Shown piece after piece: positions 17,984 through 28,889 of a DNA stretch of 64,000 nt. The number at the start of each line of letters is the position of its first letter. Within the stretch, counting starts at the first letter, position 1. This DNA is from Pyrinomonadaceae bacterium (lineage in GTDB: Bacteria; Acidobacteriota; Blastocatellia; Pyrinomonadales; Pyrinomonadaceae), in assembly GCA_035474235.1 (NCBI GenBank), contig DATINM010000051.1:40437-104436 (forward strand), in the 5' to 3' direction. Both the position numbers and the translations under genes were made by a program. The notes under the pieces were generated by a model. That model was not told where the DNA came from. It made no database searches and saw only the letters and a program-made list of their open reading frames with translations.

Positions 17984-19543
17984 ATGCTCTTCGGTTCCAC
18001 TATGCTCGAAGTCGCCATCGGCATGGTCTTCGTCTATCTCTTAATGAGCCTGCTGTGCTCGGCGCTTAACGAGTTGATCAACTCCCTGTTCAAGCTGCGC
18101 GCCAAAGATTTGGAGAAGGGAATCAAGAGGCTGCTCGACGGCAAGGCGGAGAGGAAAGGTCTGGGCAAGAAGCTATCCGACTTCTTCTCCGGCTTCGGCA
18201 GCCCGCGCGCCGTCGCCGTCGCCGGGGAAGAAGTCAGGGAAAGAGCCGGGAAGCTCTCCGCCCTTTTCTTCGACCACCCGCTCATCAGGCCCTTTTACGA
18301 AGACCGCAAGCCGTCCTACATCCCCGCGCGCACCTTCAGCCTCGCCCTCTGGAACATGGCTACGGAGGCGGCGAAGAAGGCGCGCAGCGCGCTCATCACG
18401 TCGCCGCCGGACGCATCCGGCGACGTTGTCGCGGGAGTGACGAGAAACCTGAAGGAACTGCGGGACACGATTGCCACTCTGCCGGACGAGGATCTGCCGA
18501 AGAGCCTCAAGCAATCGCTCGTCACGCTCATTGACGAAGCCGACAACGACTTCGACAGGGCGCGCGAGAACGTCGAGAAGTGGTACGACGACGCGATGGA
18601 TCGTGTCTCCGGCAAGTTTCGCCGACGCACGCAGTACATCCTCATCGCCCTCGGCTTCACCATCGCGCTCGTGATGAATGTGGACAGCTTCAACATCTTC
18701 AAGGCGCTCTGGAACAGCGGAGACTTGCGCAAATCGGTCGCCGACGTGGCCGAGACATACGCCAAGTCGCAGTTGCCGACGCCCACACCCACGCCGAACA
18801 CGGCGAGCGGCTCGACCACTCCGAGCGGCGGCGCAAACAACAACAGCAACAAAGGCACCAACACGAATACCGGCACGGGCGCGAGCACTAACGCCAACTC
18901 CAACAAGAACACCAACGCAAACGCCAACTCCAACAAGAACACTAACGCGAACACAAACACGAACACCAGCGCGAACACAAACACAAACACGAACATCAAC
19001 ACCAACGCGAACACCAACGCTGGCGCTGGCACGACGCCGACCAGTGAGGGTGAGTCTTCCGACGAGAAGGCGAAGTTCGACGCTGCCGTGAAGAGAATCA
19101 ATAATCTCCAAATGGAATTGAACGGACTCGGCCTGCCCATCGGTTGGGACTGCTCCAGAGTGCCGGTCGCGTCGGGAGACAACTCGAAAACCGGCACTGA
19201 CGCGAACGCAAACACAGGCACCAACACGAACGACAACACAAATGCCAACAAGAGCGCGAGCGTCAGCCCGACGCCGGCACCAAGGCCCGCCCGCCAGTGG
19301 AAGTGCTCGAACATCGCGGACAACCCGCGCGGCACGCCGCAGGGCCTCTTACCGTGGCTCTTGAAACTGGCCGGAATCTTCCTGACGGCGATGGCCGTCT
19401 CACAGGGAGCGCCCTTCTGGTTCGATATGCTCAACAAGTTGATCGTCATTCGCTCGACCGTCAAGCCGAACGAAAAGAGCCAGACGGAGGGAACCAAAGA
19501 CAAGAGCGCGAAGGACGGGGAAGAAGACGGCGGCGGCAAATAG
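17984..19543 (+). CDS. Integral membrane protein with a long Asn/Thr-rich low-complexity insert
   Basis: N-terminal TM segment (MLEVAIGMVFVYLLMSLLCSAL), mid TM segment (YILIALGFTIALVMNV), C-terminal TM segment (LLKLAGIFLTAMAVSQGAPFWFDMLNKL). There are two N/T/A/S repeat blocks. Good SD. No family recognised. Confidence 0.65.
   Translation: MLFGSTMLEVAIGMVFVYLLMSLLCSALNELINSLFKLRAKDLEKGIKRLLDGKAERKGLGKKLSDFFSGFGSPRAVAVAGEEVRERAGKLSALFFDHPLIRPFYEDRKPSYIPARTFSLALWNMATEAAKKARSALITSPPDASGDVVAGVTRNLKELRDTIATLPDEDLPKSLKQSLVTLIDEADNDFDRARENVEKWYDDAMDRVSGKFRRRTQYILIALGFTIALVMNVDSFNIFKALWNSGDLRKSVADVAETYAKSQLPTPTPTPNTASGSTTPSGGANNNSNKGTNTNTGTGASTNANSNKNTNANANSNKNTNANTNTNTSANTNTNTNINTNANTNAGAGTTPTSEGESSDEKAKFDAAVKRINNLQMELNGLGLPIGWDCSRVPVASGDNSKTGTDANANTGTNTNDNTNANKSASVSPTPAPRPARQWKCSNIADNPRGTPQGLLPWLLKLAGIFLTAMAVSQGAPFWFDMLNKLIVIRSTVKPNEKSQTEGTKDKSAKDGEEDGGGK
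18890..18949 (+). repeat. In-frame 30-nt tandem duplication inside a wider (AAC-RCN)n coding microsatellite
   Basis: AACGCCAACTCCAACAAGAACACCAACGCA followed directly by AACGCCAACTCCAACAAGAACACTAACGCG (2 mismatches). It encodes NANSNKNTNA twice. Confidence 0.85.
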
Positions 19544-19901
19544 AGCGTGAAGTTGAACAGCTTTCGGCTAAACGTCCGTCCGACGTGGCCGGGATAAAGT
19601 TTAGTGGCGAAAACAATCCCCGCCCTAAAAAGCACACGACGAGGCCGCGCGCGGCGCCCGCCGCGGCGCCCGCGCCCCGGCCCATCACCGGGGCCGCGGC
19701 ACAATCTCTCCCCGCGAGACGTGCCAGCGTCAATCGTTAACTAAAATGCCCATGTGGTATTCTCTCGCGCGTTCGCATCTTTGAAAATAAGGCAACGGTC
19801 TGATGCGTAACTCGGCCCCAATCTCAAGGGAGTGATGAGCGCCGCCGTTCGAGATGAAAGCAGGTTCATTCTCACGGCGAAACAGTTACGCGAGGATATT
19901 C

Positions 19902-19919
19902 TATACCGTCATCGGTATA
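19902..19919. promoter_or_regulatory. Candidate operator palindrome upstream of the XRE gene
   Basis: TATACCG-TCAT-CGGTATA about 50 nt upstream of the ATG at 19969. Confidence 0.25.
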
Positions 19920-19968
19920 AGGGCCAGTTTTTTCGTCTTATTGCTGTCCTGTCGGGAGGTAACTCCTG

Positions 19969-20283
19969 ATGGGAACGGCACGTCAGAAGGCGGAGCGGCT
20001 TGCCGAAAAACTGCTGCGGGTGCGGCTTGAACTCGGGCTTTCGCAGACCGAGATGCACAGGCGCTTAAATGCCGAGGACATGGTTGCGTACACCAGAATT
20101 TCCGAGTACGAGCGAGGAATACGCGAGCCGCCTCTGCCGATTCTGCTGCGCTACGCTCGCGTTGCCGGGGTGCCGACCGAAGTGCTCGTTGACGACGAAC
20201 TCGACCTGCCGAAGAAACTGCCCGGCCCGACGAATCACGAAGAAATCAGACGCAAGTTTACCCCTTCCCGTAAAAAACGTTAG
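19969..20283 (+). CDS. XRE/Cro-C1-family helix-turn-helix transcriptional regulator
   Basis: LRVRLELGLSQTEMHRRL......ISEYERGIREPPLPILLRYARVAGVPTEVLVDD is a typical HTH_3 pattern. GGGAGG SD. It lies in the AT-richer island. Confidence 0.8.
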   Translation: MGTARQKAERLAEKLLRVRLELGLSQTEMHRRLNAEDMVAYTRISEYERGIREPPLPILLRYARVAGVPTEVLVDDELDLPKKLPGPTNHEEIRRKFTPSRKKR

Positions 20284-20323
20284 GCGACTCACCGCGCGCG
20301 TATCGCCCGTCAGTAAGCGCAGG

Positions 20324-21076
20324 TTAAAGTTTAGCGTCTAGTCTGGCAGCGGCCCTGGCGGAAACCTTTGAATGTAAGTCGGAAAGTGATTCGTAATCGA
20401 GGAAGTTGACTTCGGAGCGGATCGAAGTGAATGCTGTATAACCCATCTTTTTTTGGAATTCACCAAGCCTTGCTTTATCGGCGACGATGTAGAATCTGAT
20501 TTTAAAATCCTGAAACTCGACGAACTTGAGCAGCGAATTTTGAATGTCGGTGGAATGCTCCACTTCAAAAAAGGCTTCCGGGAACTTTCTATTATTGAAC
20601 CAAGAGACATCAACCGTTCTGGCTCTTCTCAGGAGTGAGTCGTAAGTGAAATTATAAAACTCCTTCAGCGTGGCGACCTCCGACAGCCTTCGCTCCAGAA
20701 ACGGTTTGTTCTTGTCTTGATGCGGGACGAAGGTTTCATGGTTCGTCAGGTTTCCAATCTCGATGAGTAGTCCCTGATAGTAGCTATGGTTGAACACTTC
20801 AGGGTTACGCGCATTGGCCTTCTCATCGAGTTTGAGCTTTGACAGCACCGCATCGCGCTCAGACGCGAGTGCCCACAGGCCGGGCCTGATTCTGAAAAAA
20901 TGATTCGGGTATACCTGAACTATGCGGCGGATACTCGCGAACGGCGTCTTCGTTCCCCACCGGCAGCCTTCAATCTTCGTGGCCGTGCGATACAGTTGGC
21001 CGAGCGTGGCGTAACCGCCGTTCTCGCGCATGGCCTGAATGACCGCCTCGTATTGTCTCATCGCGCCGCCTCTCAA
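20324..21076 (-). CDS. Two-domain protein: N-terminal HARE-HTH-like winged helix plus C-terminal PD-(D/E)XK-like nuclease domain (putative)
   Basis: N-terminus YEAVIQAMRENGGYATLGQLYRTA.......TPFASIRRIVQVYPNHFFRIRPGLWAL matches the HARE-HTH pattern. C-terminus has VDVSWF...AFFEVEHSTDI (D...ExE-type nuclease-like motif). It lies 29 nt downstream of the restriction endonuclease (REase) gene on the same strand. Both domain calls are made by eye. Confidence 0.5.
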   Translation of the reverse strand: MRGGAMRQYEAVIQAMRENGGYATLGQLYRTATKIEGCRWGTKTPFASIRRIVQVYPNHFFRIRPGLWALASERDAVLSKLKLDEKANARNPEVFNHSYYQGLLIEIGNLTNHETFVPHQDKNKPFLERRLSEVATLKEFYNFTYDSLLRRARTVDVSWFNNRKFPEAFFEVEHSTDIQNSLLKFVEFQDFKIRFYIVADKARLGEFQKKMGYTAFTSIRSEVNFLDYESLSDLHSKVSARAAARLDAKL

Positions 21077-21105
21077 GCGATAAAATTACTTCGGGCGAGT
21101 ATAAA

Positions 21106-22080
21106 CTAAGCGGCGAACTCTTTCTGCCCTTTTATAGCGACTTTAAGCAGACGGCGTAAAGCCCATTCCAGTTGTCCCTCCTTGGCGAGCCGAATGTTAA
21201 CAAGGTAATCAATTCTATCAAACGCCTCCCGCAGCGCGGCTCGCATCTTCAGCCACCCATAGCCATCCGTGACCCAGATAAAACCTATACCTGCTTTGTT
21301 GAGGATTTGCTGGCGCGCGAAGTATTCGGCTGCGATGGATTCGGGCTTTGAGCCGGTCGAGCCGTAATGATTAACTTCTATGACAGCGAAACGGCGCGGC
21401 GGCTTGCTCGTCCAAAAGGCCCAGTCCCATTTCTTCCTCGTAAATCCTCCGGGCAGAACACAGCCTTGTGAGGCTAAGAATGCATAAGTTGCTTCGGCCC
21501 TTACTTCGATCTGGGGAAACTTTTTGAGCGTCTGTTCGACGGTCGGGCGAAGAGCTTCAATCGCGCACTTGCCGCTGCGATTTTTACGCGCATTGCTATC
21601 AAGACCTACCTCTACGCCGGTGGCGTAGTCGAATACGGACTTGATTTGTTCGAGCAGAAACAGGATGCCCGATTTGAGTAGGAACTCGACGTAACCTTCT
21701 ACCTGATCGTCAGTCAGAGGAAGCTTAGCTATCGAGAAATCATATGACTTAACAACTCCCAGATTTAAATCCTCTGCCAGAGATATGACGCACCGCGAAG
21801 TGTTTCGCTCTGCGTTTGCTATCAGAACGGGGAGCACGGGAATAACCTGCGGGTACTTTCGTAGCAACTCCCGCGCGGCCTGCTCTTTGTCGGGTGCGCT
21901 GCAAAGAGAGCTTAGAAGGAAAAGCTCGTGCCGGTAGCGCTCGACGTTAGTGAATACCTTTTTCCAGTCCACGTAATAATCGGCGTCGTAATAAGACCGA
22001 AGCTCAGCGACAAAACGGTCGAAAGCCTCATCCGAAGACTTGGCCCCGAAGCGGTCTTCATAAAAGAAAAGGTCAGCCAT
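21106..22080 (-). CDS. Type II restriction endonuclease, DpnII/MboI family (predicted GATC-specific)
   Basis: DYYVDWKKVF..V, YPQVIPVLPVLIA, FLLKSGILFLLEQ, DYATGVEVGLDSNARKNRSGK, VIEVNHYGSTGSKPE and FIWVTDGYGW line up with my recollection of R.DpnII (..YVTGVEVGMDTNGRKNRTG.., ..IEVNFYSGSGSKLNE.., ..WITDGQGW..). Confidence 0.75.
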   Translation of the reverse strand: MADLFFYEDRFGAKSSDEAFDRFVAELRSYYDADYYVDWKKVFTNVERYRHELFLLSSLCSAPDKEQAARELLRKYPQVIPVLPVLIANAERNTSRCVISLAEDLNLGVVKSYDFSIAKLPLTDDQVEGYVEFLLKSGILFLLEQIKSVFDYATGVEVGLDSNARKNRSGKCAIEALRPTVEQTLKKFPQIEVRAEATYAFLASQGCVLPGGFTRKKWDWAFWTSKPPRRFAVIEVNHYGSTGSKPESIAAEYFARQQILNKAGIGFIWVTDGYGWLKMRAALREAFDRIDYLVNIRLAKEGQLEWALRRLLKVAIKGQKEFAA

Positions 22081-22985
22081 CTGTAACCCCCCCCCCCCCC
22101 AACAGTTACGGGCGGATCAAAGGTCAGGCTGTCTTGCCTCTCTCGTGCGACCGTCTCATCCATAATCCTTTTGGCTGCGGCCTCCAAAAAATCCTTGTCT
22201 AACTCAAAGCCTACGAAGTGGCGGCCCGTGCGGGCACAGACCGTGCCCGTAGTGCCGCTGCCGCAGAAAGGGTCGAGGACGAGGTCGTGTGGGTTTGTTG
22301 ACGCGCGGATGATTCGGTCGAGCAGCGCTTCGGGTTTCTGCGTAGGGTGCTTGCCGTATCGTTTCTCGCGCGGGGCGGGAGGCTTTATCTGCCAGAGCGA
22401 TTGCATCTGACGGTCGCGGTTCTCGCGCTTCATCTCCGCGTAGTTGAAGGTGTGACGCGCCTTCGGGTTGCGACGCGCCCAGAGAATCGTCTCGGTCGCG
22501 TGCGTGAAGTAGCGGCAAGAGAGGTTTGGCGGCGGGTTGACCTTGTACCAGGCGATGTCGTTCAGAATCTTGAAGCCGAGCATCTGCATCGCGAATCCGA
22601 CGCTGTAGATGTTATGCGCCGTCCCCGTCACCCAGATGCTCCCGTTCGGCTTGAGCAGGCGGCGGCACTCTTCGAGCCACACGAGATTGAATTTGTGTAT
22701 CTCCTCGAAGGTCGCGGCCTTGTCCCACACGCCCTTATTGACGCTGACCATCCGTCCCGCGTGACACGTGATGCCGTCATTCGAGAGGAAGTAGGGCGGG
22801 TCTGCGAATATCAGGTCGAAGTGCGAGTCCTTAGCCTTCTTCAAAAGTTCGAGCGCGTCGCCGCGATAGAGCCACAGGCCGTGCGCCTTGTCCTCGAAGA
22901 AAGGTGCGGGCGTGTCGTGAGGCATCAACGCTTCCCACGGAGAGTCGTCTGCGGATTCTGAAACTGCCGGACTCGTCGTTGACAT
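21912..22985 (-). CDS. Beta-class N6-adenine (or N4-cytosine) DNA methyltransferase. As sequenced, its 3' end runs 56 codons out of frame into the REase gene.
   Basis: Motif IV FDLIFADPPYFL precedes motif I VLDPFCGSGTTGTVC, which is the beta-class order. After the G14 tract the protein reads GGGGGYRWLTFSF..., an out-of-frame translation of the REase 5' end. Confidence 0.85.
   Translation of the reverse strand: MSTTSPAVSESADDSPWEALMPHDTPAPFFEDKAHGLWLYRGDALELLKKAKDSHFDLIFADPPYFLSNDGITCHAGRMVSVNKGVWDKAATFEEIHKFNLVWLEECRRLLKPNGSIWVTGTAHNIYSVGFAMQMLGFKILNDIAWYKVNPPPNLSCRYFTHATETILWARRNPKARHTFNYAEMKRENRDRQMQSLWQIKPPAPREKRYGKHPTQKPEALLDRIIRASTNPHDLVLDPFCGSGTTGTVCARTGRHFVGFELDKDFLEAAAKRIMDETVARERQDSLTFDPPVTVGGGGGYRWLTFSFMKTASGPSLRMRLSTVLSLSFGLITTPIITWTGKRYSLTSSATGTSFSF
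22087..22100. repeat. Homopolymer: C14 on the plus strand, G14 on the coding strand, at the MTase/REase junction
   Basis: Counted directly: cccc (22087-22090) plus cccccccccc (22091-22100). It ends 6 nt upstream of the REase ATG (22080). Confidence 0.95.
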
Positions 22986-23130
22986 GAAGATGGAATCTAA
23001 GCCGAACCCCGGGCGCGCTCGCCTGATCTCCCGAAAGCGGATCGGATCGTTGATCGAATCTGTGGGAACGTCAAGGCGCGCGGGCGCCAGCGCGAGCGAC
23101 CTAAATTCTTCGACTTGTTTGATTAAGTTT

Positions 23131-24126
23131 TTAGACTGCGGCGCGCAGCGATTGTGCGATGAGCGGGACGACGCGGCGCGGGACGGCGACGGCCTCTCTG
23201 ATGTGGCGGGAGTTTGTGAAGTGGCCTGCGACGTAGAGGCCGTGGACGTTGGTCTCGAAAGTCTCGGGGTCGTAAGACGGAATTTCGGTGAGGCCGGACT
23301 TCTCGACGCGGACGCCCGCCTCGCGCAGCAAGGTCAGGTCTGCGTCGCTGCCGATGAGTATGAAGACGGCGGCGTTCGGGAGCGCGTGCGAAGCGCCGCG
23401 GTCGTCTTTGATTCTGACTTCTGTTTCGGTTATCTCCTCGACCTCGGAGAAGAGGAAGAGGCGCAGGCGGCCTTCCGCGATCTCGCGTTCGAGCGGCACG
23501 CGAACCCAGTGCTTGATGCAGCCGCGCTTCGGGTCGCGGTTCTCCCAGTCCGAGGGCCAGATGGCAAACGTCGGGCGCGCGCCGCCTTCGGAGAGAAAGA
23601 GCGCGGCCTCGGCAGCGGAGTTGCCGCCGCCGACGACGAGCACGTCCTTGCGGACGTAAGGGTAAGGCTCGACGAAGCGATGGTGCACTTTCGGCAGGTC
23701 TTCGCCGGGCACTCCGAGCCGCCGCCGACGCGCCATCGCGCCCGTGCAGACGAGCAGCCGCAAAGCCTCGTACTCATCGCGCGTCGTTCGGACGCGGAAG
23801 CCCTCCGCGCCGAGAGGCTCGATGCGCGTGACGGCCTCCTCGGTGTTGATATGAAGATTATGTTCGAGCGCGAAGTGGACGTAGTAGGAGAGCAACTCCT
23901 CGCGCGTCGGCTTCTCGCGGCAGGGCTTCAATCCGCCCTCACTCAACTCAAGCTCGTTCGTCGTCGAGAAGACGGTCAGGCCGACTGGGTATTGATAGAC
24001 GGTGTCGGCGATTAGACCTTTTTCGACGACGAGATAGTCGAGTCCCTCGCGCGCCGCAACGTCCGCCGCGGAAAGACCGGCGGGGCCCGCGCCGATGATA
24101 AGCAAGTCGAGTCGTCCGTCGTTCAT
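23131..24126 (-). CDS. ypdA: YpdA-family FAD/NAD(P)-dependent disulfide reductase (putative bacillithiol disulfide reductase)
   Basis: LLIIGAGPAGLSAA......YLVVEKG.IADTVYQYPVGLTVFSTTNELEL....L....KPTREELLSYY matches the YpdA N-terminal pattern. There is a second Rossmann motif, VLVVGGGNSAAEAA. Confidence 0.7.
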   Translation of the reverse strand: MNDGRLDLLIIGAGPAGLSAADVAAREGLDYLVVEKGLIADTVYQYPVGLTVFSTTNELELSEGGLKPCREKPTREELLSYYVHFALEHNLHINTEEAVTRIEPLGAEGFRVRTTRDEYEALRLLVCTGAMARRRRLGVPGEDLPKVHHRFVEPYPYVRKDVLVVGGGNSAAEAALFLSEGGARPTFAIWPSDWENRDPKRGCIKHWVRVPLEREIAEGRLRLFLFSEVEEITETEVRIKDDRGASHALPNAAVFILIGSDADLTLLREAGVRVEKSGLTEIPSYDPETFETNVHGLYVAGHFTNSRHIREAVAVPRRVVPLIAQSLRAAV

Positions 24127-24217
24127 GGCTTCCTTGAACGACTCAATCCTCGCACGCGCGGGCGCAGGGTCGCAACCCCGCGCGTGCGTCGCAGACCCGG
24201 ACGGACTCGAACGGTCT

Positions 24218-27163
24218 TTAATCCGAACATTCGGGGAGGGGAACGGTGGTCGTGCCGGGCGGATTGCCCAGATAGCAGCGCGCCTGCGTCTGGAACGATT
24301 CGATGTCTGTGACCGTGCCGCCCTTGCAGATCAGGTTGACGATGTATTCGCCGAGCGCGCGGTAGCTCTCGAACTGCGACTCGCTGTACATCTGATCGGC
24401 GGTTGACTCGTGCGGGAAGGCCGGGTTCGACTTGGCGTAGTGGAAGACGTCGGCAGGCTCGCCGCCGTAGATGTTCGGCTTGATGTAGATGATCGTGCCG
24501 TTGACTGCCGTCTCGCCGTCCTTCTTCTTGTAGCAGATCGTGCCGACGGCGCAGAACTTCTCCTTCAGGTCGTCGGCCTGAAGGAAGGCTATCTCGTCGC
24601 GGTCTTTCGGCGTGACGGGGATATTGTCGAAGAGGATTGGGATGCCGAGGTCGTCGCGGATTTTGCTGACGGCGTTGCCGAGGTCGCTGAAGGTGAAGGT
24701 CGGGTCTGCGCTCCCGTCGCTGACGACGATTGTGTGGCAGCGGCGCAAGACCATCTCGTAGAGGCCGAGGTTCTCGAAGTGCCCGCCGTCGGAGAGATAG
24801 ACGTATGGGTGACGGTCGTCCGTCCAGCCCAGAGTCTCCGCGATGATGGGGCGCGGGCCGTAGGTCGGGCCGGACTTGTCGTAAGTCGAATCGCCGGCCT
24901 TGCCCGGGTTGCCGAGCCACCAGCCGAGACGGACGTTGAAGAGCGAGAGGAGAAACGTGACGAAGGTCGAGGAATAGTAGCCCATGTTCGGACTCGCCGC
25001 CGCGCCGGAAATCGCGACCGCCGTGCCGAGCGAGATGCCGCGCTCCATAGCCTTGTCGTAGCCGTACTCTTTGGAATCGCGATAGCCGAGACAGAAACTC
25101 CCCGAATAGAGGCGCGAGGATGTGAACGACTCGGCCTTTCTGTCCTGCCATGCCAACTGCTCGCCCGAAAGGCTTACGAGGTTCAAGGTCATGTTGACGA
25201 CGTGCAGCGGCCTCTCGGCAAGCTCGCTCATAGGCATGTTGTCCGCTTCGTCGAAGCCTGTGAAGGGGTTTGGGCGTCGCTCGGACTTGGGTCGCGACGC
25301 GCCGAGGTATGCGCGTATGAGCCGGTCGCGGTAGGCAGCGTGCAGAGAGAACTTGTTGATGTTGACGCAAAGCCCCATCAGGAAACCCGCCAGGACGACG
25401 ACGAAAGAGAGCGCGAACACGAACCTGCCCGGTAGGTGATAGATAATGTTAAGAAACCCGTAGCTATCGTAGGGCAGGTGTTGATATGCATCCCATTTTA
25501 TCTCATGGATGGCGAGTAGAGACCTAAGCCCGTACCAGTCAGCCCAAGAACCCGCGCCTGCAAGCGCGTCGTAGATTGCGCGGTAAAGTAAGGTAGTCGC
25601 GAGCGACATGATGATCAGCAGGAAGACGGCGAAGACGGGAGCCGCGAGCGCGAGCGCGTAGCGCTTGAGTAGCTGAGTCCACCCGGAAGCGTTCTGCTTC
25701 TTCTCCTCTTTATTGTTCGCGGCCGTCTGACCGCTCGTGCCGCCGCCTATCGTTACAATCCCCGCGGCGCTCCCGATTGCAGTGATTATCTTCGGGCCGA
25801 AGTAGAAGAGCGCGACGGGGCCGAAGATCACGATCACGCTTACGATGATCCACAGCGCGGCGGCGATCAAGACCCATGCGCCCGCACGCGCCAGCCACTC
25901 GCGGTCTGCGTCCGTCGTCTTGCGGCTGGCGAATCCGACGAAGAGCGTCGAGGCGATGAGGAAGAGTATCAGGAAGGTCGGCGCGGCGAAGCAGACGTAA
26001 AGCGACGTGCTCAAGACCGTCGCGGTCTCCGTATCCTTCACGATAGGATTATCGAAGATGTTGGCGGCGACGAGGTAAGTCAGAAGACCGCCGATGAGTC
26101 CCGTGGGAACGGCGAAGAAAGGCTCGGCGAGAAGCACCCTTCGCAAAAGTAGAATTTGCGCGACGACGTATGCGCCGCCGTAGAGCAGCATGCCGAAGAA
26201 CGCGAACGAGAAGGCATTGTGTATGTTGCCGAACGGCGCGAGCCTGAGTTGATCCATCGGCGCGCGAAGCCATGCCCAGTAGGTCGTGATCGCGCTCGCG
26301 AGCACGAGCAGAGGGGCCACGCAGAGTATTAGGAACCACCACTCGCCCCTGTACTTCTCCCGCAGGCGGCTCGCGTCGAGGCCGGAAGGCTTGGGGTCTG
26401 CGATGCTCGGACGGTTGGCGATGATGAAGGCGATTGCGAGTATGCCGAAGACGACGGCGAGCAAGTAGGCGAAGCCCGTCCATCCGCCGCCGCCGCCCCA
26501 CCGCGCGACCGCGAGGCTCAGCCGCGGGATGACGAGCACGCCGAATATCAGTGGGACGAGCACGAGTTGAATGAGAAAGAGGTTTCGGAAGTAGATGGCT
26601 ACGAGCGTCCAAGTGTCCGCCGACAGCAGCCCTAGCCGCGGACTCATGTAGTTGCTGTATGAGCGTAGGTGTCTGACAGTCTCCGGCTCCGGCTGAAGCT
26701 TCGGCGCGGGCGGATTGTTGAGTTCATCCTGTATGTCTCTGAGCGCATCCCGCGCGCTCTTCTTCGAGCGCTCGCTCTCGCGCCTTAGCCATGCGGAGAA
26801 CCAGCCACCGAGGTATCCGCCGCCCGAAACGGTCGAGAGGTAATCGAACTCCGTGAGCAACTTCTTGCGCGCAAGCCCCTGCAACACGCCCAGCCCGAAC
26901 GTCGCGCTCCGAATCCCGCCGCCCGAAAAGCACAAGGCCGCGCGCTTATCACCATTTCGCGCGCGCTCGTGGATGAGATCGCAGATGGCCGACAAGCGCT
27001 TGTCGGCCTCCGCCTTCTTCTTCTCGTCCTTCTCTTTTTCAGTCAGCCCTTTCTCTTTATCTATTTCGCTCAGCGGTCTCCTTGGATAGTCGGGAAGGTT
27101 TTTGTAGAGTTCCTGATACTCTTTCTCTAAAACTTCGCAAAGATGAAATGGGCCGTTAGACAT
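24218..27163 (-). CDS. Patatin-like phospholipase whose catalytic halves are separated by a multi-TM insert of about 500 aa
   Basis: N-terminus: ALCFSGGGIRSATFGLGVL (oxyanion GGGxR) and LSTVSGGGYLGGW (nucleophile-Ser region). About 10 hydrophobic helices span aa 190-640. C-terminus: YVYLSDGGHFENLGLYEMV (catalytic Asp, DGG). Confidence 0.75.
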   Translation of the reverse strand: MSNGPFHLCEVLEKEYQELYKNLPDYPRRPLSEIDKEKGLTEKEKDEKKKAEADKRLSAICDLIHERARNGDKRAALCFSGGGIRSATFGLGVLQGLARKKLLTEFDYLSTVSGGGYLGGWFSAWLRRESERSKKSARDALRDIQDELNNPPAPKLQPEPETVRHLRSYSNYMSPRLGLLSADTWTLVAIYFRNLFLIQLVLVPLIFGVLVIPRLSLAVARWGGGGGWTGFAYLLAVVFGILAIAFIIANRPSIADPKPSGLDASRLREKYRGEWWFLILCVAPLLVLASAITTYWAWLRAPMDQLRLAPFGNIHNAFSFAFFGMLLYGGAYVVAQILLLRRVLLAEPFFAVPTGLIGGLLTYLVAANIFDNPIVKDTETATVLSTSLYVCFAAPTFLILFLIASTLFVGFASRKTTDADREWLARAGAWVLIAAALWIIVSVIVIFGPVALFYFGPKIITAIGSAAGIVTIGGGTSGQTAANNKEEKKQNASGWTQLLKRYALALAAPVFAVFLLIIMSLATTLLYRAIYDALAGAGSWADWYGLRSLLAIHEIKWDAYQHLPYDSYGFLNIIYHLPGRFVFALSFVVVLAGFLMGLCVNINKFSLHAAYRDRLIRAYLGASRPKSERRPNPFTGFDEADNMPMSELAERPLHVVNMTLNLVSLSGEQLAWQDRKAESFTSSRLYSGSFCLGYRDSKEYGYDKAMERGISLGTAVAISGAAASPNMGYYSSTFVTFLLSLFNVRLGWWLGNPGKAGDSTYDKSGPTYGPRPIIAETLGWTDDRHPYVYLSDGGHFENLGLYEMVLRRCHTIVVSDGSADPTFTFSDLGNAVSKIRDDLGIPILFDNIPVTPKDRDEIAFLQADDLKEKFCAVGTICYKKKDGETAVNGTIIYIKPNIYGGEPADVFHYAKSNPAFPHESTADQMYSESQFESYRALGEYIVNLICKGGTVTDIESFQTQARCYLGNPPGTTTVPLPECSD

Positions 27164-27871
27164 AGAATGACTCCTGGCTTGGTTGGCGAGTGAAGGTTAA
27201 ATCCCGAATCACGCGGCTGTGTAACGAGCGTTCGACGTGCGTATTAAGTGAGATGCCGGCTGGTCAAGTCGCGTCTGCCAGTCGCACCTCAGTCGCGTTT
27301 ACTTCTCAGGCTGAGAATCTTTTTCATTTGGAGTCGCGCCGCGACGGGTCGGCGCGATTCGGCGTCGAGCTATTCGAGATACCGATCCCCGCCGAGGAAT
27401 CATCACAGAAGAGAGCGGGATCGTGGTGAACCGCCGGCACGGTAGGGCTTGTGTCGGCTCGGAAGCCGGTTGAAAGCGTCGGCAAAAATATTCCCGCACG
27501 AAAATATTGTCAATCACTTTTTTCCGCACACGTATCATGCTGCAAATCTCTGTACGGAAAATTGGAACGCCACCGGCGAAAGAAGATGAAAGCCCCGCAA
27601 GGGCGACTCCGGCAGTCGCCGGAAAAGAGTATCGAGCCGCGCCCGCGCTCAAGCGGGCCGGCGGTTTCCGAATTGGCGCGCGGGCGGTACGTCGTCTTTG
27701 ATTCAGCCTTCGCCTGCTAAAAAAGTCGGAGCGCGCGCGACCGTCTTCTCGTGCCTTCTCTAAATCTATAATGCTGTTTTGAGGAAAAACATTTCGCGCG
27801 CAGACCGTCGTTAGAGATGCGTCGTGCGTCGCTTGTCGCCGGACGCGCAGGCGTGGCCGCGCGCTAACTGT

Positions 27872-27901
27872 TTGCGCGCTTTCGGAAGCGCTCGCTATAA
27901 T
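27872..27901 (+). promoter_or_regulatory. Candidate promoter for the dapA-like gene
   Basis: TTGCGC-18 nt-TATAAT. The -10 box overlaps the ORF-track ATG at 27900. The next ATG (27912) is 10 nt downstream, so the leader would be very short or absent. Confidence 0.3.
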
Positions 27902-27911
27902 GCCCGGCCTT

Positions 27912-28889
27912 ATGAGAGACGAGATCGGCAACCGGAAAACTTCGCACACTCAACAGGTCGTCAACAAACTGCGCGGCGTTCTGCTGCCGTTCACGACGCC
28001 GTTCGGCGAGGGCGGCGAGGTTGATGCGGCGGCGCTCGGCGCGAACATCGAGAGGTGGAACGAGACGGGCGTGGCAGGCTACGTCGCGCTCGGCTCGACG
28101 GGCGAGCGCGTGCATCTGGACGAGCGAGAACGAACGGAGGTCGCCGAGGCGTCGAGGGCACGCGTGCCGCGCGAGCTTGCGTTCGTCGTCGGCGTCGGCG
28201 AGCATTCGACGCGGCACACAATACTCGAAGCGCGCCGCGCGGCGGCGACGGGCGCGGACGCGGTGCTCGTTCTGACGCCGCACTTCTACCGTGGGGCGAT
28301 GTCGCAGGACGCGCTCGCCGGACACTTCCGACGCGTCGCCGACGACTCGCCCGTCCCCGTCATCCTCTACAACATCCCGCAGAACACGGGCGTCGCAATC
28401 GCGCCGGAGTGGGTCGCGCGGCTCTCGGAGCACGCGAACATCGCCGGCATCAAGGATAGTTCGGGCGACATGGTGAACCTCGTCGAGATGATTCGGCAGG
28501 TGGGCGGAGGGCGCGAAGACTTCGCCTTGATGACGGGGCACGCGGGCGTCTTCTACGCATCGTTGTGCGCGGGCGTCGTCGGCGCGATACTCGCCGCGGG
28601 CTGCGCCGCGCCGCGTCTGTGCGTAGAGATTTACGAAGCATTCATGCGCGGAGACCACGCGCGCGCGCTTGAGTCGCAGGCTCGACTCGCGCCGCTCGCT
28701 CGCGCCGTCACCGTGCGCTTCGGCGTCGGCGGTTTGAAGTACGCGCTCGACCTCGTGGGTTACAAGGGCGGTGCGGTGCGCGCGCCTCTCGGCGAGCCGA
28801 ATGAAGAGGCGCGCGCAGAGATCGCAATGCTTCTCGAAGAGACCGAAAACGGCGCAGCGCTCTCGGCGTCAACGCCGCCCGCTTCGTGA
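27912..28889 (+). CDS. Dihydrodipicolinate synthase/N-acetylneuraminate lyase family protein
   Basis: GVLLPFTTPF.....VD..AL..NIERWNETGVAGYVALGSTGE, VGVGE.ST, YNIPQNTG, GIKDSSGD (Schiff-base Lys context). The start could be 27900 or 27912. Confidence 0.8.
   Translation: MRDEIGNRKTSHTQQVVNKLRGVLLPFTTPFGEGGEVDAAALGANIERWNETGVAGYVALGSTGERVHLDERERTEVAEASRARVPRELAFVVGVGEHSTRHTILEARRAAATGADAVLVLTPHFYRGAMSQDALAGHFRRVADDSPVPVILYNIPQNTGVAIAPEWVARLSEHANIAGIKDSSGDMVNLVEMIRQVGGGREDFALMTGHAGVFYASLCAGVVGAILAAGCAAPRLCVEIYEAFMRGDHARALESQARLAPLARAVTVRFGVGGLKYALDLVGYKGGAVRAPLGEPNEEARAEIAMLLEETENGAALSASTPPAS

Follow-up and report, generated by a model that had tools for sequence, protein, structure and literature searches.

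A poly-G tract at the methylase-nuclease junction of a DpnII-family restriction-modification cassette in soil Acidobacteriota: a putative dial for the restriction:modification ratio

The stretch of DNA analyzed here, a 64-kb window from the genome of a Pyrinomonadaceae bacterium, carries a type II restriction-modification (R-M) cassette of the DpnII family in which a run of 14 G residues (G14) lies at the joint between the methylase gene and the nuclease gene. With a probability of roughly 0.6, G14 is a genuine, selectively maintained, slippage-prone repeat whose length modulo 3 would dial the ratio of nuclease to methylase. A preliminary description of this DNA had proposed that the genes are coupled, overrun or fused according to the number of G residues, and had suggested looking for the tract in the homologous systems of relatives. 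The tract is indeed present in those systems, with 9-14 G and a length that varies, and all three arrangements occur in public assemblies of close relatives. A clade of soil Acidobacteriota/Pyrinomonadaceae has retained it down to nuclease identities of about 53%, and one Chthonomonadaceae lineage also carries it.

The methylase-nuclease junction

The upstream gene of the cassette encodes a beta-class N6-adenine DNA methylase whose open reading frame (ORF), in its long form of 357 aa, spans 21912..22985 on the minus strand. The protein matches PF01555 (N6_N4_Mtase, E 4e-63) and carries the motifs DPPY and FCGSGTTG (the S-adenosylmethionine motif FxGxG); its catalytic core ends before the tract. 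The closest NCBIfam similarity is to CcrM-type adenine methylases, with a score under the cut-off. The downstream gene (21106..22080, minus strand) encodes an intact type II restriction endonuclease of 324 aa that matches PF04556 (DpnII) over profile positions 2-276 of 278 (E 6.7e-65). Adjacent and co-oriented, the two genes have the makeup of a DpnII-family R-M pair, and specificity for GATC is presumed from family membership.

On the minus strand the junction reads ...CCCGTAACTGTT-G14 (22100..22087)-TTACAG (22086..22081)-ATGGCTGAC, as the preliminary description had it. The homopolymer (22087..22100) contributes glycines to the C-terminal end of the methylase and is the part of the junction that varies in length. 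Its 5' flank, GTAACTGTT (22101..22109), encodes Val-Thr-Val with rare A/T-ending codons and is conserved in the alignment. The spacer TTACAG (22081..22086), which the fusion frame reads as Leu-Gln without a stop, joins the tract to the nuclease start and is directly followed by ATG and GCTGAC. The start codon (ATG, 22078..22080) is GTG in several relatives, and the nuclease alignment shows a conserved N-terminus, M/V-A-D-L-S-F-Y. Only 6 nt separate the end of the tract from this ATG, and no other purine-rich sequence resembling a Shine-Dalgarno (SD) element is found there. The tract therefore does occupy the SD position to which it had been assigned, with the refinement that the tract itself is the SD-like element of the nuclease; in relatives, A-interrupted forms of it read GGAGG or GGAG.

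G14 is the sole homopolymer of at least 8 bases within the 64-kb window, and a first-order Markov model predicts only 3e-5 G/C runs of at least 14 there; chance is therefore excluded. As in contingency loci, the repeat is uninterrupted and of slippable length, which for a homopolymer begins at about 8.

In the sequence as given, the methylase ORF continues after five glycines as YRWLTF...SFSF, crosses the nuclease ATG, and proceeds for 55 codons in the nuclease +1 frame to a TAA (21914-21912) that lies within the invariant nuclease residues Leu56-Ser57. An overrun to 21912 had been described before and stands, apart from a trivial difference in its length (56 codons stated, 55 counted). The methylase stop of the window thus falls 166 nt beyond the nuclease ATG, and the overlapping stop and start of coupled gene pairs is absent in this state. 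When the tract is edited in silico to G13 or G16, the methylase ends as ...GGGGVTDG after 303/304 aa, at a TGA (22073..22075, minus strand) that overlaps nuclease codons 2-3. With G12 or G15 the two genes form an in-frame methylase-nuclease fusion of 625/626 aa (...GGGGLQMADLFF...), and with G11 or G14 the overrun form results. These edits match exactly the three frame outcomes predicted earlier from the G count. The repeat therefore sits near the 3' end of a coding sequence, and its frames yield two C-termini and a downstream fusion, as in C-terminal phase variation. The G run is also surrounded by a 5-bp inverted repeat, GTAAC...GTTAC (22082-22109, minus strand), which may be due to chance; because its arms bracket the run, tract length would alter their spacing. 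The arms are kept only in part in three related loci (L086, L089 and L091).

Tract lengths and reading frames in relatives

A protein search with alignment of the best matches recovered methylase homologs of 62-91% identity that have two kinds of C-terminus. The short form ends in V[GE]GGG[VL]T[SDG][GA] (P0006, P0008, P0009, P0010, P0012, P0014, P0020, P0030 and a variant of P0022), and the long form runs through VGGGGGYRWL to a terminal SFSF (P0002, P0003, P0004, P0005, P0007, P0011, P0015, P0043, P0054 and P0105). At the DNA level, the long state of the window (GTT G14 TTACAG ATGGCTGAC) is shared by L082, L089 and L090 with G14, by L084 and L085 with G11, by L095 with G9, and by L086, L087 and L088, whose 14-nt tract is interrupted (GAG10AG). 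The short state occurs in L083 (G13), in the Acidobacteriota metagenome-assembled genome L001 (G7AG5), and in L096, where GTG G13, read as a 14-G run, is followed by TTACAG ATGGTTAAC, is 1 nt shorter overall, and brings the methylase to a TAA stop. The nuclease of L096 is 98% identical to that of the window, yet its locus is in the short state. Methylase stop and nuclease start overlap in all three of these 13-G relatives. The fused state is represented by L098 (GTT G12 TTACAG ATG) and L097 (GTG G12, equivalent to 12). Other arrangements are found in L091 (nuclease 55% identical; GAG12 TTAGCTT ATG), whose methylase ends at a TAG lying 4 nt ahead of the ATG, and in the Chthonomonadaceae loci L093 and L094 (G10), in which a short-like frame without the TGA runs 13 codons on to a TAA.

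Natural fusions have the predicted structure. P0252 and P0269, both of 619 aa, read ...VTVGGGGLQMADLSFY..., and fused proteins read ...GGGGLQMADL... across the junction. The fusions lay outside the best 120 matches of both protein searches and surfaced when the members of clusters were listed. The 90%-identity clusters of P0004 and P0011 combine methylases, nucleases and fusions, probably merged because the 619-aa fusions bridge them. For database searching, this merging means that fused forms were concealed from ordinary searches.

Tract length varies between closely related strains, within 90%-identity clusters, as expected of a contingency locus. The P0004 cluster includes G11 long forms, the short P0250 (G13, inferred from its C-terminus) and the fused P0252, and the P0011 cluster includes G14 long and G12 fused forms. 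Long forms are likewise found beside short ones in the P0008 cluster (P0260) and the P0006 cluster (P0244). L098 and L089 share 91% identity, and their alignment has just two gap positions, which match the 12-versus-14 difference in the tract. Counted as distinct proteins or loci, the collection comprises about 16 long, about 13 short and 2 fused forms, together with 2 in which a TAG precedes the ATG. A neighbor-joining tree of the methylase core with 25 tips requires at least 10 state changes, and the frame often flips between near-identical strains. The fused state, expected in one third of cases, accounts for 2 of 28-31 (binomial P about 5e-4 to 1e-3, phylogenetic non-independence being ignored). 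Tract lengths are concentrated at 13 and 14, a distribution that would fit single-step slippage trapped between the disfavored fusion lengths 12 and 15.

Authenticity of the tract length

Evidence from sequencing runs consists of Logan assembled contigs, which drop minor variants. The whole window is present in a soil metagenome (X1) at a contig word depth of 14. A second study contributed a rhizosphere run (X2) with an 18.8-kb contig of word depth 114 that is about 94% identical over both genes. Between 22000 and 22179 this contig differs from the window by substitutions only; the tract is unaltered, and because no indel crosses it, X2 also has G14. One of the substitutions, 22074 C>T, changes the TGA of the alternative frame to TAA, so that a stop is kept at that site. 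Identical long-form proteins are found in several assemblies, and interrupted tracts hold frame in either state (14 nt and long as GAG10AG, 13 nt and short as G7AG5).

The preliminary description had allowed that the 14 could be an artifact of a true 13, a fallback that these observations disfavor. In its general form, this explanation treats the length differences among assemblies as homopolymer miscalls. Homopolymers of 11-14 G are error-prone, and some seemingly independent assemblies may share the same reads. Contigs of low depth from three further runs (X3, X6 and X9) stop at or inside the tract, but these are read-length singletons and uninformative either way. Miscalling is difficult to reconcile with G14 in two studies, one of them at 114x, from strains 6% apart. 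The long frame also recurs in many assemblies, three of which belong to a lineage in which G10 is flanked by A interruptions, and the short frame is found in the interrupted G7AG5. Finally, the observed lengths and frames (11, 12, 13 and 14) are asymmetric about any one value, with a strong depletion of the fused frame. The tract is real and an assembly artifact is now unlikely; we regard a true length of 13 in the window, with miscalls elsewhere, as very improbable.

Conservation of the tract and of its alternative frames

Runs of GGG codons persist in lineages whose nucleases are 53-83% identical. Glycine is encoded by GGG in only 13-15% of cases in this genome, so that the retention of 4-5 consecutive GGG codons by many lineages implies that selection acts on the run of nucleotides itself. 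Among seven diverged loci, the block GTAACTGTT-Gn-TTACAG-[AG]TGGCTGAC has an identity of 0.88, versus 0.59 and 0.61 in the coding flanks. Among the matches listed from a metagenome scan with the nuclease alignment, 80 distant DpnII loci (30-38% identity, 318 kb), used as an outgroup, lack any G run of at least 8. In 10 of the 24 distant DpnII loci examined, the methylase stop forms an ATGA overlap or lies 5-7 nt before the nuclease start; tight juxtaposition of stop and start is therefore the family norm.

Both main frames appear to carry signatures of use. A stop of the short frame, either TGA or TAA, lies over nuclease codons 2-3 in 9 of 11 loci, including loci in the long state, and survives residue changes at nuclease positions 2 (A/P/V) and 3 (D/E/N). 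The codon pairs seen are GCT GAC, CCT GAC, GTT GAC, GCT GAA, GCT GAT and GTT AAC, with GCT AAC in X2. T is invariably the last base of the second nuclease codon, even though Ala/Val/Pro codons ending in T make up only 20-27% of usage. In 10 of 11 loci, regardless of their present state, the long frame stays open for exactly 55 codons. By synonymous-codon resampling, the probability of such openness ranges from 0.17 to 0.93 per locus, with a product of about 4e-4 over eight diverged loci.

Conserved features in both alternative frames would also fit a recoding mechanism, in which stuttering of RNA polymerase or slippage of tRNA-Gly mixes the frames at any DNA length, some fusion or short product is made at a low level in all cases, and the length itself matters little. 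On a GGG run tRNA-Gly can re-pair in any frame, and low-level frameshifting on a G7 run has a precedent in herpesvirus thymidine kinase (reviewed in PMC5009743). In the loci studied here, however, every ORF is complete without a shift, unlike the ORFs of programmed frameshifting, and each frame is also realized by variants at the DNA level. A stimulatory RNA structure is not apparent (fold z-score -0.1), and the window has no match in Rfam. Recoding is not required by any of the observations and is considered quite improbable. Folding was also considered as a means of sequestering the SD-like tract and the start codon; this candidate was rejected, the minimum free energy being like that of shuffled sequence.

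A functional overlapping peptide encoded by the 55-codon tail was rejected as well. The tail is poorly conserved, identity at four-fold sites in the overlap is barely raised (0.49 versus 0.41), and in P0256 the stop is lost and the protein extends 17 aa further. An AlphaFold model of the long form, built on a shallow alignment, has a mean pLDDT (predicted local distance difference test) of 44.5 over the whole protein and is uninformative about the tail.

A proposed mechanism and its main rival

The mechanism favored here assigns the tract two roles, as the repeat that sets the methylase reading frame and as an SD-like sequence for the nuclease. Tract lengths would interconvert within populations by slipped-strand mispairing. 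In the short state (3n+1, as in G13), ribosomes translating the methylase would end at the TGA or TAA over nuclease codons 2-3; having terminated on ATGnnTGA, they could be held by the G-rich run and reinitiate at the ATG or GTG, and this coupling would yield more nuclease. In the long state (3n+2, as in G14 or G11), which is that of the window, ribosomes would pass the nuclease start and reach a wrong-frame stop 55 codons inside the gene. Coupling would be lost, the start would be partly occluded, nuclease output would probably be lower, and the methylase would bear a non-conserved passenger tail. In the fused state (3n, as in G12) a single polypeptide would carry methylase and nuclease at 1:1, an uncommon arrangement against which selection probably acts. 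No state disrupts either catalytic ORF; the device would therefore be a heritable, reversible and stochastic dial and not an on/off frameshift. That tract length tunes the restriction:modification (R:M) ratio, as first suggested in the preliminary description, is plausible, given indirect signatures in the sequence. A more specific proposal is offered tentatively, as a possibility: across a family-level clade, the tract may serve as a dedicated contingency toggle of restriction strength between ribosome-coupled G13 and overrun G14, with both enzymes unbroken and the fusion lengths 12 and 15 acting as barriers.

The main rival holds that the tract is a neutral by-product, an over-grown G-rich SD sequence and glycine linker that slips while the nuclease initiates alone. 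Short and long states would be functionally the same, only the fusion would be mildly deleterious, and the variation would have no regulatory use. The near equality of long and short forms (13:13 by cluster) fits this explanation, as do the intact nuclease in 11 of 11 loci whatever the state and the poor conservation of the tail. The A interruptions, too, leave canonical SD sequences, as an SD role would. An SD sequence requires only about 5 bases, however, and the tract has 11-14. Long pure homopolymers are otherwise absent here and should decay, yet this one persists across a clade in which synonymous sites are saturated. Neutral slippage would also spread the lengths, which instead group at two values, and would not conserve the short-frame stop in lineages that are now in the long frame. 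The neutral explanation is therefore thought unlikely, though it is the most serious of the alternatives.

Several considerations weigh against the proposed dial. The nuclease ORF, its start codon and the SD-like tract are intact in all states, and translation of the nuclease may be about equal in every one of them. Even in L086, which is semi-locked in the long frame, the nuclease is intact, so that the long state is no complete "off"; it is for this reason that the tract is described as a dial rather than a switch. The GCT second codon could be favored for initiation rather than for the stop that it helps to form. The statistic for the open long frame assumes independent lineages and is suggestive, moderately strong at most, and the sharing of the stop at Leu56-Ser57 can largely be put down to an invariant serine that rarely leaves the AGY codon class. 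Individual length calls from low-coverage assemblies could also be wrong.

Comparison with known systems

To our knowledge, descriptions of phase-variable R-M come almost exclusively from host-adapted pathogens, where the usual form is an on/off frameshift in mod, hsdS or nuclease ORFs. The closest known kind of system is C-terminal phase variation. It has been reported from Neisseria gonorrhoeae (e.g., NGK_1211/NGK_1212; Zelewska et al. 2016, PMC5320596) and, according to the citation in that paper, from Helicobacter canadensis (Snyder et al. 2010). In both cases a homopolymer of strain-dependent length lies close to the 3' end of a coding sequence and gives two C-termini, with the third frame producing a fusion to the downstream gene. 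In contrast to those examples, the two genes joined here encode the methylase and the nuclease of one type II system, the hosts are free-living soil Acidobacteriota, and the tract is also SD-like for the downstream gene. One frame, moreover, restores a stop/start overlap, and the expected output is a change in coupling rather than a new tail on a surface protein.

Among phase-variable type II systems, NlaIV of N. gonorrhoeae (bioRxiv 10.64898/2026.01.10.698759) is similar in that a homopolymer acts on the restriction arm and methylation largely stays on. The poly-T tract of NlaIV, however, sits in the 5' portion of the nuclease ORF, and when out of frame it truncates the enzyme, whereas the nuclease ORF is never disrupted here. 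In Campylobacter jejuni, the poly-G tract of cj0031 determines whether the restriction and modification domains are produced together in one long polypeptide or in truncated form. This fused type IIG enzyme is controlled by an intragenic tract (PMC4889913). In both systems poly-G decides whether the two domains form one polypeptide; cj0031 is naturally single-chain and switches on and off, whereas here there are two genes and the fusion is the rare state. The 13-G state also reproduces the layout of methylase-nuclease pairs with juxtaposed stop and start, known from the DpnII family and other type II systems, but such pairs have no repeat and their layout is fixed. The DpnII cassette of Streptococcus pneumoniae comprises dpnM, dpnA and dpnB, with an alpha-class Dam-like methylase and a beta-class methylase upstream of the nuclease. 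The present cassette resembles it in having a DpnII-family nuclease and a beta-class, DpnA-like methylase, and differs in its single methylase, its NmeDI_C-family third gene and its poly-G junction.

A review of the field (PMC12707154) treats phase variation among the methylases of Type I and III systems ("phasevarions"). Among the translational controls of type II systems, it covers antisense RNAs or hairpins, possible coupling of C gene and nuclease, and disfavored codons; repeats at gene junctions are not mentioned among them. The present case differs in the position of the repeat at the joint of methylase stop and nuclease start, where it also acts as a putative SD sequence, together with the expected readout in coupling and the occurrence in uncultured soil hosts.

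The mutational device known from the pathogens is found here in an ordinary two-gene type II system of abundant, uncultured soil bacteria. In principle it could shift the R:M ratio with no loss of methylation and without breaking either ORF; since the methylase would never be switched off, the risk of self-restriction would be avoided. If this reading is confirmed, contingency loci would gain in ecological range as well as in mechanistic repertoire. The more specific G13/G14 toggle, if true, would amount to a "safe" form of phase-variable defense, and would extend contingency loci based on simple sequence repeats beyond host-adapted pathogens to uncultured soil bacteria.

Neighboring genes and chromosomal setting

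A third gene (20324..21076, minus strand; probable start at ATG 21061, after a GAGAGG motif) follows the nuclease in nearly all relatives. It has no match in the copies of Pfam and NCBIfam used, but is 75% identical to a gene of L084 (4420-5157) annotated as PF27126, and NmeDI_C (PF27126) is its annotation in relatives. Neither this gene nor the nuclease has relatives among solved structures. In a Chthonomonadaceae locus (L093, 4404-5051) the third gene is replaced by a protein with DpnI_C, the annotated DpnI C-terminal domain, and HNH. Just past the third gene lies a convergent gene (19969..20283, plus strand) for an HTH_3 (Xre-type) protein of 104 aa, and an equivalent gene of 110 aa is found at the same place in L089 and L098. 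The HTH_3 protein may be a member or controller of the cassette.

The upstream neighbor of the cassette is a Pyr_redox oxidoreductase gene (23131-24126, minus strand), beyond which a patatin-like gene (24218-27163, minus strand) lies beside the cassette site. The Pyr_redox gene is common to most loci; the cassette has therefore stayed at one chromosomal site through this divergence. The G+C content is 0.52 over the nuclease and third gene (20001-22000), compared with about 0.62 for the window, which suggests an old horizontal origin despite the conserved chromosomal site. A search of a plasmid database gave no match to the locus.

Gene calling and exchange of cassette segments

Automated annotation is affected by the tract. 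In long-state loci, gene callers shorten the nuclease to 288 aa (starting at a GTG at Val37), 251 aa or 223 aa and attach the out-of-frame 55-aa tail to the methylase. The public record of the 118.6-kb contig that contains the window lists a methylase of 337 aa and a nuclease of 288 aa. The shortened nuclease and the spurious methylase tail are annotation artifacts that the tract produces.

Two observations concern exchange of cassette DNA between lineages. X2 covers 33% of the sampled words in 21100-23000 but 10% in the surrounding 10 kb (18001-28000); the cassette is therefore more alike between the two strains than its flanks are, and cassette exchange could account for the excess similarity. 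L097 and L084 are 93-96% identical through the methylase to about 20 nt beyond the nuclease ATG. The body of the L097 nuclease is a divergent allele, about 79% identical to that of L086, and an identity of 91% to L084 returns about 100 nt before the stop. The nuclease body (the equivalent of about 21200-22060 in the window) has thus been swapped between lineages, with the conserved junction block apparently acting as the joint for recombination.

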